In this document: one piece after another, positions 47,952 to 50,913 of the stretch | How positions within the stretch are numbered: position 1 is the first letter of the stretch | Layout of the letters: every line of letters begins with the position of its first letter | Source: Helicobacteraceae bacterium | GTDB lineage: Bacteria > Campylobacterota > Campylobacteria > Campylobacterales > Helicobacteraceae | Assembly (NCBI GenBank): GCA_050874285.1 | Contig: JBNMKJ010000002.1 | Coordinates: 16,374 to 80,373 of the forward strand | Direction of reading: 5' to 3' | Length of the DNA: 64,000 nt | Notes under the pieces: model-generated | Seen by the model: the letters and a program-made list of their open reading frames with translations, nothing else | What the model was told of the DNA's origin: nothing | The model's database searches: none | Position numbers and translations under genes: made by a program

Positions 47952-49487
47952 TTAAGAAACTACGCTATCTATCCAGCCTAAATCCCGCACCACAAGGCTA
48001 GGGAATCGCCCCTTTGTGCTTTGCAAATCCGCTCTTTGCGTCTCGCCTGTGAGAGTGCAGATAAAATCGCAATCCATATTATCCGCTAATGCCTTATCCG
48101 TGTAGATTCTATCGCCTATGATAGCGATTTGGCTTTTGTCATATTGGCTTAAAAGCGATTCCACCAAAGCGATATTTGGTTTGCCAAAAATTATGCTAGG
48201 TGTTCGCGTAGTCGTAGATGACAAAAGCTCTATGTAGCTACCAATATCTGGCATAGCTCCCCACTCTGATGGGCAAAATATATCCTTGTGCGTGGCGATA
48301 TACTCGGCGTTTGTGTTATTTAGCAAAATGCAAATATTTTGTAATTTACTATAAGTGATTTGCGTATCATAAGTGAGTATCACGGCTTGATTTTGCGATT
48401 TATCAAAGCTAAAATCGATATTTGGCAAATTTGATTCTAAAAAGTGCGTAACTTTATCATTTGCCACCAAATACGCGCTTTTGATTTGCTGTGAGCGCAA
48501 ATACTCTATGAGTGCGTTTAGCGGGGTTATGATATGATTTATGTCTGTGATGATTCCAAAGGATTGTAGCTTTGCCACATAGTCGCTTGGGATTTTAGAA
48601 GTATTATTCGTTAGGAAATACACTTGCAAGTCGCCTTGTGCGCGTTTGATAAAATCTATGGAGTTTTGCAAGGGCTTATCTCCCACGCATAAAGTGCCGT
48701 CCATATCGCATATAATAGCCCTTTTGCTACCCAAATCAAAATCGCTAAAGACTCTATCAGCCAATGCCAAATCATATTCATTATCCACTTCTACCCATTT
48801 TTTAGAATCTATGTCGTGCGGATAGACTTTGACTTGGCGAAATAACGGCGGAAACGCCACTTCGCTCCATTGTGTCAAATCCTTTTTGACTTCGATAAAA
48901 TCTTTGATGATTTCAAAAAGGGCATTTGCCCCAAGTGCGGAGAATTTATACAAATCCGTAGAGATTCCATCGCTTTTGCTTGGCGGTATGTCTTTGGCGA
49001 TATTGCATAGAGATTTATCGGTGTTTATAGAGATTTTCATTGATTCGTCATTGTAGATTCCACTCTCAATCGCGATAGAATCTATCAAAGCGCAATGCAC
49101 AAAATCTTTGATTAGCGATTCTTCATACAAGCAATCCGCATTATTGACAAAAAGTGTGCTAAGCGTATCTAGTGGCAAAGATTTTAGTGCTAGATAAAGT
49201 GAGTGCATATTATTTGTGGTGGCATAATCACTATTCCTAATCGTGCGGATTTGCGGATAGTGTCGCGCTAAAAAGGACTCTATCATATTGCTTTTATATC
49301 CTGTAACGACTAGGATATTTTTTTGAGCCAATCCAGCGTTTAGATAGCCTCTAATTTGATAATCCAAAATCGCCCTGCCATTTACTAAAATCAAAGATTT
49401 TGGACAACTTTTAGTAATGCTATGAAGCCTAGAGCCAAATCCAGCGGATAAAATAATGGCGAAAGATTCGTTGAGAGTTATTTTCAC
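47952..49487 (-). CDS. fused sugar/alcohol-phosphate nucleotidyltransferase (LicC-like) and HAD IIA (NagD-like) phosphatase
   Basis: N-half ILSAGFGSRL..PKSLI..NNADCLY..WVEVDNEYD; C-half CDMDGTL..LTNNTS..GKP..IGDRIYTD. Confidence 0.85.
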   Translation of the reverse strand: MKITLNESFAIILSAGFGSRLHSITKSCPKSLILVNGRAILDYQIRGYLNAGLAQKNILVVTGYKSNMIESFLARHYPQIRTIRNSDYATTNNMHSLYLALKSLPLDTLSTLFVNNADCLYEESLIKDFVHCALIDSIAIESGIYNDESMKISINTDKSLCNIAKDIPPSKSDGISTDLYKFSALGANALFEIIKDFIEVKKDLTQWSEVAFPPLFRQVKVYPHDIDSKKWVEVDNEYDLALADRVFSDFDLGSKRAIICDMDGTLCVGDKPLQNSIDFIKRAQGDLQVYFLTNNTSKIPSDYVAKLQSFGIITDINHIITPLNALIEYLRSQQIKSAYLVANDKVTHFLESNLPNIDFSFDKSQNQAVILTYDTQITYSKLQNICILLNNTNAEYIATHKDIFCPSEWGAMPDIGSYIELLSSTTTRTPSIIFGKPNIALVESLLSQYDKSQIAIIGDRIYTDKALADNMDCDFICTLTGETQRADLQSTKGRFPSLVVRDLGWIDSVVS

Positions 49488-50913
49488 GCTAACTCACTTT
49501 TAATAATCTCTAATATTTTATCCGCCACACTAGGAAAATTGACTCGCACGATTTCTTTGGCAAATTTGATTCGTTCTTCTTTTTTTGTGTCTTGTCCCGC
49601 AATTATGATTTTTTCAATAAAATCTATAATGTCAGATTCGCTAAAAGCGTGATAATAGTGTTTTAAGCACTCACTTCCTAAAGTGGCTAAATTCCTATCA
49701 TTTGTAGCACTATCTTTTAGCATATAGCAACAAGGATTGTCGGTATAGAGATATTCGCCAATAAATGAGCCACAATCGTGCAAAATTCCATCGGAGTTTA
49801 TAAATGTCTCAAAGTATTCACCACCTTCTTGATATTCGACATTGTTAAATGTTTTAAGTTTGGCTAGGTAATTATCTAATTTTTCTTGTCCCCAATATTC
49901 ATCTTTTGCTAATGCTATAACCAAAAGTGGGTGCGGACGAAACACAAAATCAATTTGCGGATATTTTTCAAAAATTTCTAAAAAGAAATCCGCATAGCGC
50001 AAAAAGTTTGATAATTGCAAAACGGGATTATATTTTGCATTTAGCGTGTGGTGTGGAGCAATGATAATTTTTTTGCGCTCACGCAATTTGTGCTTAATAT
50101 TTGCAATAGAATCCATTTTAATATAACCACTTAATATCGCATTTGCACCGCGATTTATGGTAATGGAGTTGTATTCATTAAGTCCAAATTGCGTATCGAC
50201 AAAAATTTTCCAGCAAAGATTTAAAACAAAAGTGGGGACTATTTCGTTGCGATTCCACGATGCGCAACCCATAGCATAAGGTGTAAATAAAACCAAAATT
50301 TGCTTTGATGCTGCATACCTTATGGAATAGATTTCATCGCTCATAGTTTCATAAGGCTGAGAAGTCGCAAGTATATCCATATCATCGCTAAAATCTATAA
50401 ATTCCTTAGTATTTTCATCATAGCATTTATGAACTAAGTCGCCATAGTCTTTTGACAGCGTTTTATATCCCTTATCTACTTGATAGAACATATTTTCATC
50501 ACCTCTAACAATATCTGGTATAATGACTATGTATGGCTCAAATAGCGAATCGCTTTGCATTTTTTCAAAAAGTGGTTTAAATGGAAAGGCACTATCATAG
50601 ATGATATAGAAGCAAACTTTTATTTTTTGATTCGTTGCTATTTTGTTTTTTAGTTGAGTTATTTTGCTTTGGACTTGTGCTTGGAGTTTTGTGTTTAATC
50701 GCGCCCAATTATTGTGGTATATGGGAGCAATACACCCATTGTAGGATTCAAAGTTTGAAATATCATCTAGCGTTACATTTGGGCTAGAGTTTAGTGGATT
50801 CCCCCCCCCATATTAGCATTTATGGTGTTTCGCGTTAGCAAATCATATACAACTTGCTTTTTTGTTTTATTTTTTACCAATTTAGTAATACATTGCGCCA
50901 AAATCGGATGCAT
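49484..50913 (-). pseudogene. CDP-glycerol:glycerophosphate transferase (TagF-like) family protein, phase-OFF
   Basis: ATG 50913 after aggagag reads ..NMGGGIH-stop at G9; G10 joins it to 49484-50560 (IIAPHHT, FRPHPLL, DCGSFIGEY), 476 aa. Confidence 0.75.
50801..50809 (-). repeat. G9 (C9 on + strand) phase-variation tract (OFF)
   Basis: gtggatt-CCCCCCCCC-atattag. Confidence 0.88.

Follow-up and report, generated by a model that had tools for sequence, protein, structure and literature searches.

We conclude that a two-gene cassette on a contig of a Helicobacteraceae bacterium is probably a phase-variable system that decorates a surface glycan with a phospho-polyol, most likely glycerol phosphate, probably as glycerol 2-phosphate. 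The cassette lies in a 64,000-nucleotide stretch of DNA (assembly GCA_050874285.1, contig JBNMKJ010000002.1, positions 16,374 to 80,373 of the forward strand), here called the window, and positions given below are those of the window unless another contig is named. Both genes are on the minus strand. Gene A (49484–50913) is predicted to encode a divergent TagF-like phosphotransferase acting on polyols activated with cytidine diphosphate (CDP), with the glycosyltransferase B (GT-B) fold; it is 476 amino acids (aa) long in frame and OFF in the present assembly. Gene B (47952–49487) encodes a bifunctional nucleotidyltransferase/HAD-IIA protein of 511 aa.

The cassette would have been acquired horizontally as a two-gene contingency unit. 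In the proposed mechanism, the HAD-IIA domain of gene B would make the phospho-alcohol and its LicC-like domain would couple this to CTP to yield CDP-glycerol. Gene A would then move glycerol phosphate from CDP-glycerol to a hydroxyl of a capsule or lipo-oligosaccharide sugar, releasing CMP. Slippage of a poly-G tract at codons 35–38 of gene A would switch expression on and off, the present assembly showing an OFF length. The early stop in gene A would probably also lower gene B by translational coupling, since gene B starts inside the stop codon of gene A, in a 4-nt overlap (GTGA, 49484–49487, minus strand) that comprises the TGA of A and the GTG of B. In this reading, the domain identities with their intact catalytic motifs, the frame logic, the differing tract lengths of orthologues, the insertion site and the pairing of the fusion with TagF-like genes are shown by the sequences; we infer which donor and isomer are used, which glycan accepts the group, and that A and B are coupled. 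Outside the window, at G000:C3:36546-37364, the genome has a gene of the KpsC/KpsS type for capsule synthesis (PF05159, E 8e-39), with nearby G/C tracts at C3:34905, 36107 and 37224, and the organism probably makes a group-2-type capsule. Given this KpsC-like gene, the capsule is a reasonable candidate acceptor, with lipo-oligosaccharide as the alternative.

The poly-G tract of gene A

The tract is a run of nine G residues in the gene (C9 on the plus strand) at 50801–50809. Frame analysis placed a stop after 40 aa at G9 and an open frame of 476 aa at G10, the OFF and ON states given in a first-pass annotation of this DNA; G8 and G11 are also off. No stop occurs in the 442 codons past the tract, and these are 55–72% identical to full-length proteins of 467–477 aa from other assemblies. 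The tract was found at the same codon position in five assemblies. It is G9 and off in the present one, and in frame in the other four, at G12 (L001), G14 (L087), G14 (L088) and G9 (L089). L001 is a Helicobacteraceae metagenome-assembled genome in which both the gene pair and its flanks are the same, and a gene A relative in L002, from the Campylobacteraceae, is without the tract. Genes of the A family in other Helicobacteraceae carry G/C tracts of 10–12 at or near their 5' ends.

Intragenic homopolymers of variable length are the hallmark of slipped-strand contingency genes, a class known in Campylobacter and Helicobacter. Gene A has the corresponding features: a tract of at least 8 inside an open reading frame (ORF), a frame restored by a one-base change, and a length that varies among orthologues at the same site. 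Across the genome (1.99 Mb, 40.8% G+C) there are 117 G/C runs of at least 8 and 105 of at least 9, with a mode of 9, compared to ~1.9 runs of at least 9 expected by chance. Given this excess, the tract of gene A is not a chance feature. Roughly 30 G/C tracts are known in Campylobacter jejuni. For Helicobacter canadensis, 29 tract-associated coding regions have been reported. The number in the present genome is several times that of either species.

In the OFF state an in-frame remnant ORF of 358 aa (49484–50560, minus strand) appears in the ORF list. We considered this as an independently functional short form and rejected it. It lacks the first N-terminal Rossmann β-strand (residues 64–70 in the model, in the numbering of the 442-aa protein), which lies upstream of its Met and is kept in every homologue.

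Switching of a similar enzyme is known in the Campylobacterota. On/off expression of the TagF-like CDP-glycerol glycerophosphotransferase 06875 controls phage adsorption and sensitivity in C. jejuni NCTC12662 (PMC8949473). In 06875, in the phase-variable, capsule-modifying O-methyl phosphoramidate (MeOPN) transferases cj1421 and cj1422 of C. jejuni, and by our reading in the present cassette, homopolymer slippage switches an enzyme that decorates a surface glycan. Unlike 06875, gene A occurs in the Helicobacteraceae, belongs to a different TagF subfamily, and lies outside a capsule locus together with its own donor-synthesis gene.

Gene B and the route to the donor

The description of gene B as a LicC-like/NagD-like fusion, made in the first-pass annotation, agrees with its closest solved relatives. 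Residues 10–246 (48750–49460, minus strand; PF12804 and PF00483, motif LSAGFGSRL) form a cytidylyltransferase domain resembling LicC and inositol-1-phosphate cytidylyltransferase (IPCT). The nearest structures are LicC (1jyk, E 4e-12) and the nucleotidyltransferase domain of PntC (6pd1), and the nearest NCBIfam model is IPCT (NF041135, E 1.5e-14). LicC is a CTP:phosphocholine cytidylyltransferase. Residues 257–505 (47973–48719, minus strand; PF13344 and PF13242) form a HAD-IIA domain of NagD type, best matched by 1vjr (E 1.4e-35) and 1pw5 (E ~1e-35). All four HAD motifs are present, namely D261xD263GT (DMDGT), TNNTS, GK436P and GD459RxxTD464 (GDRIYTD). These motifs and the GxGxRL loop (G16, G18, R20, L21) are invariant in an alignment of 35 family members, and since gene B has them, both of its halves look catalytically competent. 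The fused architecture is found in more than 600 proteins from many phyla, with 'HAD-IIA family hydrolase' as their only public name.

The fusion usually has a TagF-like gene for a neighbour, and it lies directly beside a PF04464 gene in capsule loci of Glaesserella parasuis, in Pseudomonas citronellolis, in Brucepastera, on one gut contig and in ~10 metagenome loci. A nucleotide search that used the Glaesserella pair as query returned 11 Escherichia coli genomes, five with an O33-type cluster and six with O130. The O33 cluster comprises galF, a 'HAD-IIA family hydrolase' (495 aa), wzx ('O33 family'), a 'CDP-glycerol glycerophosphotransferase family protein', wzy ('O33 family'), three glycosyltransferases and gnd; neither a dehydrogenase nor TagD is present. 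The fused protein of this cluster shares 38% identity with gene B over aa 10–491 (E 1e-107) and is a putative orthologue, as judged from architecture and context rather than from a tree. Glycerol 2-phosphate is a component of the O33 polysaccharide, going by the title of Senchenkova et al. 2018 (Carbohydr Res 460:47, listed in PMC7685785). The same two gene types occur in O130, where the fused protein is 37% identical to gene B and there is likewise no dehydrogenase. The title of Perepelov 2007 calls the O130 polysaccharide 'glycerol phosphate-containing' and does not give the isomer.

The two clusters thus resemble the cassette in having a fused protein 37–38% identical to gene B, a TagF-like partner and no dehydrogenase. 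They are the best available evidence that the fusion and a TagF-like enzyme are enough to install glycerol phosphate, at least once as glycerol 2-phosphate, without a dedicated reductase. The full-length fused homologue in the O33 O-antigen cluster also supports the earlier proposal of a compact system that makes a CDP-activated compound and transfers it to a surface glycan. Unlike gene A, whose clade goes unrecognised by Pfam, the E. coli transferase is a standard member of PF04464; the E. coli systems also differ from the cassette in sitting inside a wzx/wzy cluster. No homopolymer tract is annotated in the E. coli genes, and none was searched for.

A second line of comparison is with the CDP-2-glycerol pathway of Streptococcus pneumoniae, reportedly described by Wang et al. 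2010 (J Bacteriol 192:5506) as Gtp1, Gtp2 and Gtp3 with the transferase WchX. By domain type and gene order, this pathway resembles the cassette in its LicC-like cytidylyltransferase, its HAD-type phospho-alcohol maker and its glycerol-phosphate transferase. In contrast to the pneumococcal system, the cassette has Gtp2 and Gtp3 as one polypeptide, has no Gtp1-type reductase in its genome, stands alone outside a capsule locus and is switched by a poly-G tract. Split forms of the fusion were found in metagenomes as adjacent genes for a ~240-aa nucleotidyltransferase and a ~270-aa HAD-IIA protein, 38–40% and 30–32% identical to the respective halves of gene B. Genes of an Fe-ADH_2 cluster (333–342 aa) occur in 17 metagenome loci, mostly directly beside such split pairs, and in many of these a TagF-like gene is near. 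The order in L162 is TagF-like, Fe-ADH_2, nucleotidyltransferase, HAD, which matches the pneumococcal order wchX-gtp1-gtp2-gtp3 (PMC5581491). These split homologues, with their Fe-ADH_2 and TagF-like neighbours arranged as in the pneumococcus, lend support to the suggestion that gene B is a fused Gtp2/Gtp3.

In four fused loci there is instead a GpsA-like glycerol-3-phosphate dehydrogenase; the Fe-ADH_2 and the GpsA-like neighbours both point to glycerol. The first-pass annotation had observed that no dehydrogenase is adjacent to the cassette, taken this as a hint of another substrate, and proposed a genome search for a Gtp1-like gene. None is adjacent, and a hidden Markov model (HMM) built from the 17 Gtp1-like neighbours finds only AroB, at 43 bits, in the whole genome. 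As a reason to doubt glycerol the observation fails, since the fusion loci of O33, O130, Glaesserella, Pseudomonas and Brucepastera also contain no dehydrogenase. A gpsA gene is present in the genome. A rather doubtful idea is that GpsA feeds the HAD-IIA domain, which would then act as a glycerol-phosphate mutase or phosphotransferase and not as a phosphatase.

Gene A and the choice of donor

The identification of gene A as TagF-like comes from profile comparison. A profile of 62 gene A family members (A2) was aligned by hhalign with a profile of four genuine PF04464 proteins (A3), giving a probability of 99.25% (E 5.6e-20) in local and 99.56% (E 1.1e-22) in global mode. The A3 proteins match TagF (3l7i) at E 1e-42, and an HMM built from them matches the gene A ORF at E 7e-15. 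In the A2/A3 match the family-invariant RPH328P falls on TagF His584 (LH/MH584 of TagF-like proteins), the residue that holds the donor pyrophosphate, and HDCGSFxxEY of the A family falls on the TDYSS motif. PF04464 itself is matched by 13 of 53 close homologues of gene A (best E 1.9e-9). The TagF-like label of the first-pass annotation therefore stands at the level of profiles, but not as a Pfam match of gene A's own. On these comparisons gene A would be a divergent TagF-like phosphotransferase, a member at profile level only.

An AlphaFold2 model of gene A has a two-Rossmann GT-B fold with high confidence scores (pLDDT, the predicted local distance difference test, 93.6; pTM, the predicted template-modelling score, 0.91). 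Gene A shares this fold with TagF, TarL and Cps3D (PDB 3l7i, 8va1 and 8qoy), polymerases of teichoic-acid or capsule polyol phosphates. It also shares with them a CDP-binding C-terminal domain, the (R/K)xHP histidine and a D-x-S-S-type motif. It differs in a divergent N-terminal acceptor domain, and the WHG histidine (His444) is not recognisably kept. PF01066, the integral membrane family named CDP-alcohol phosphotransferase, has no match in gene A, and the model is that of a soluble GT-B protein. The earlier name 'CDP-alcohol phosphotransferase' is thus suitable for the activity but not for the family.

The gene A family is large: at a threshold of E 1e-30 it has 1,464 clusters at 50% identity. 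Many of its proteins are tandem forms of 800–900 aa. These have an extra N-terminal region of ~400 aa before the A-type domain, and in gut Bacteroides and Clostridia their genes often stand next to another copy with a single domain (L018 and L019, 3425-7203). Such tandem proteins may be polymerase-like or two-step enzymes. We examined the genomic context of a gene A relative in 80 genome loci. The neighbours include a TagD-like cytidylyltransferase (25/80), an IspD/TarI-like cytidylyltransferase (16/80), a pair of HAD and NTP_transf_3 genes (8/80) and a nucleotidyltransferase-aminotransferase fusion (1/80). Genes of dTDP-3-acetamido-3,6-dideoxyhexose synthesis are also frequent: DegT in 40/80, a hexapeptide acetyltransferase in 30/80, FdtA in 24/80 and RmlB in 23/80. 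In an Akkermansia metagenome-assembled genome (L043 5851-9057) the gene after the A-family member encodes a nucleotidyltransferase-aminotransferase fusion resembling PntC of aminoethylphosphonate activation, and some members of the family may transfer phosphonates.

Several results weigh against a glycerol-phosphate transferase of the TagF kind. The gene A protein has no Pfam match even at E 10 and does not reach the PF04464 cut-off, a whole-genome PF04464 scan misses it, and its NCBIfam matches are weak only. Against solved structures, neither the single sequence nor the profile gave anything useful, and hhalign of the A profile with the O33 transferase as a single sequence reached a probability of 2.5%, too weak to use, though the motifs lined up. 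The catalytic base of TagF is His444 in the WHG motif. In the global alignment WHG falls, with very low confidence, on PY154(D/E)xM of gene A, where no His is conserved; the family-invariant H288 and H289 lie elsewhere. The alignment suggests that this divergence is a real difference of gene A from textbook TagF enzymes. A Foldseek search with the model returned GT-B proteins at E 2e-12, and the top 50 matches are all UDP-GlcNAc 2-epimerases (TM ~0.55), not TagF. Together with one homologue that has a precomputed PF02350 match, this ranking is what favours reading gene A as a nucleotide-sugar enzyme of the GT-B type, UDP-sugar 2-epimerase-like or other. We regard such an enzyme as very improbable. 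PF02350 is absent from the gene A protein and from all 53 aligned family members at E 0.01, the profile match to TagF-like proteins reaches 99.6% with the His584 and TDYSS motifs aligned, and cytidylyltransferase genes are consistently adjacent. Since there is no PF02350 signal and the genomic context favours a cytidylyl donor, the Foldseek ranking, with its TM of ~0.55, would reflect the common GT-B fold and not function.

The identity of the donor is a closer question. A gene A relative is paired with the fusion in only two of the 80 genome loci (L001 and L002, both Campylobacterota), and specific co-inheritance of A with B was rejected on this count; the metagenome contig L089 has the pair as well. 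The A family is therefore tied to CDP-activated donors generally and not to the donor of gene B in particular. The donor is also not readable from the transferase, because the 72%-identical L087 orthologue at the same site pairs with TagD-like, HAD and NTP_transf_3 genes. The link to glycerol 2-phosphate runs through one paper title and 38% identity. These points also tell against the proposed donor, and they leave some room for the same architecture with another one, such as sn-glycerol 3- or 1-phosphate or a different small phospho-alcohol or acid (ribitol, glycerate, an amino-alcohol), which we consider unlikely. In its favour, phosphocholine, aminoethylphosphonate and inositol phosphate are the substrates of the nearest characterised relatives of gene B's N-terminal domain; the nucleotidyltransferases paired with A-family genes are of many kinds; GpsA, the maker of sn-glycerol 3-phosphate, is encoded in some fused loci; and the isomer of O130 is not stated in the paper title. 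In the O33 cluster, however, only the fused gene and the TagF-like gene can account for glycerol 2-phosphate; the split forms keep the gtp1-gtp2-gtp3 layout; and ordinary CDP-glycerol synthesis requires just a small TagD-type enzyme and no HAD domain. A related and rather doubtful idea is that the gene A clade, a large TagF-like group unrecognised by Pfam (1,464 or more clusters at 50% identity, chiefly of gut bacterial origin) whose catalytic His is possibly replaced, consists of generalist 'CDP-X' phosphotransferases with the donor set by the adjacent nucleotidyltransferase module. Were this so, strains could swap the phospho-substituent by cassette exchange, besides switching it on and off, since 72%-identical transferases occur at the same site with either the Gtp2-Gtp3 fusion or the TagD-like/HAD/NTP_transf_3 set. 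Absence of any switch is quite improbable. Gene A would then be a decaying pseudogene, or G9 a homopolymer error of the assembly, and gene B alone or neither gene would function. The assembled tract is out of frame and homopolymer lengths are prone to error, but the stop-free 442 codons with their intact homologues, the tract at the same codon in four orthologues at differing lengths, the ~50-fold excess of tracts over chance and the 5' tracts of other Helicobacteraceae A-family genes all argue against this.

The insertion site, wider significance and other possibly switchable genes

Gene A extends from its ATG (50913–50911) to its TGA (49486–49484), and a Shine-Dalgarno sequence, AGGAG (50919–50923, minus strand), lies 5 nt before the ATG. 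Between the GTG of gene B and the conserved AIILSAG motif there is no alternative start codon. The gene rpe is directly downstream of gene B on the same strand, and an ABC (ATP-binding cassette) operon lies upstream in divergent orientation, separated from gene A by a 108-bp intergenic region (50914–51021) that is the presumed promoter site. A scan for promoter and terminator consensus sequences around the cassette found nothing exceeding shuffled controls.

The first-pass annotation had also pictured an AT-rich gene A overlapping gene B, the pair being inserted between rpe and the ABC operon, and each element of this picture was upheld. The G+C content is 33.8% for gene A and 39.3% for gene B, compared to the 40.8% of the genome and 42–43% for the flanking rpe and ABC genes; the overlap is the 4-nt GTGA given above. 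In three genomes of the same genus the site is empty, with only 64–128 bp between rpe and the ABC gene, which marks the A-B pair as a true 3-kb low-G+C insert. In a fourth same-genus genome (G159; L187 3106-3840) the site holds an unrelated gene of 244 aa. The rpe/ABC intergenic region seems to be a recurrent insertion spot. On the Helicobacter-type contig L087 (6001-9131), the same ABC-side site holds the gene A orthologue (72% identical, G14) followed by TagD-like, HAD (PF00702) and NTP_transf_3 genes, the fusion being absent there. The site is a small variable island. Among species genomes of the Helicobacteraceae, the fusion occurs in 2/173 and the A family in 12/173.

Chemistry and switch are both of known kinds, a Gtp2/Gtp3-type fused CDP-glycerol synthase, a TagF-like transferase and a poly-G switch, and the cassette is a fairly ordinary example. 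What modest interest it has lies in the Pfam-unrecognised transferase clade, in the self-contained cassette that stands alone, and in what appears to be an exchange of donor modules at a single site. Antigenicity and phage receptors are altered when capsules and O-antigens carry phosphodiester-linked glycerol, and a stochastic glycerol-phosphate switch would let a population of gut Helicobacter hedge against both antibody and phage. The cassette would also be a compact form of the poorly studied CDP-2-glycerol route, with one fused enzyme, one transferase and no need of a reductase, and as such convenient for biochemistry and for the enzymatic synthesis of glycerol-phosphate glycans. Gene A also draws attention to a sizeable TagF-superfamily branch that is missed by Pfam; current understanding is not overturned.

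Other genes in the genome carry similar tracts. A deoxy-sugar cluster in the window (1631–6417) has three G10 tracts, at 1697, 3667 and 5082, and encodes a GDP-mannose 4,6-dehydratase, an epimerase/reductase, a dTDP_sugar_isom-type epimerase, a methyltransferase fragment and a DegT aminotransferase. In this sugar pathway it appears that several steps can each be switched on their own. Outside the window, at G000:C25:12749-14140 and 18205-19944, a cytidylyltransferase-PEP (phosphoenolpyruvate) mutase fusion, which marks phosphonate synthesis, is found ~4 kb away from a second TagF-like gene, which is split into three frames with one break at a G12 tract (+19661-19672). This pair may be a phase-variable phosphonate decoration system.

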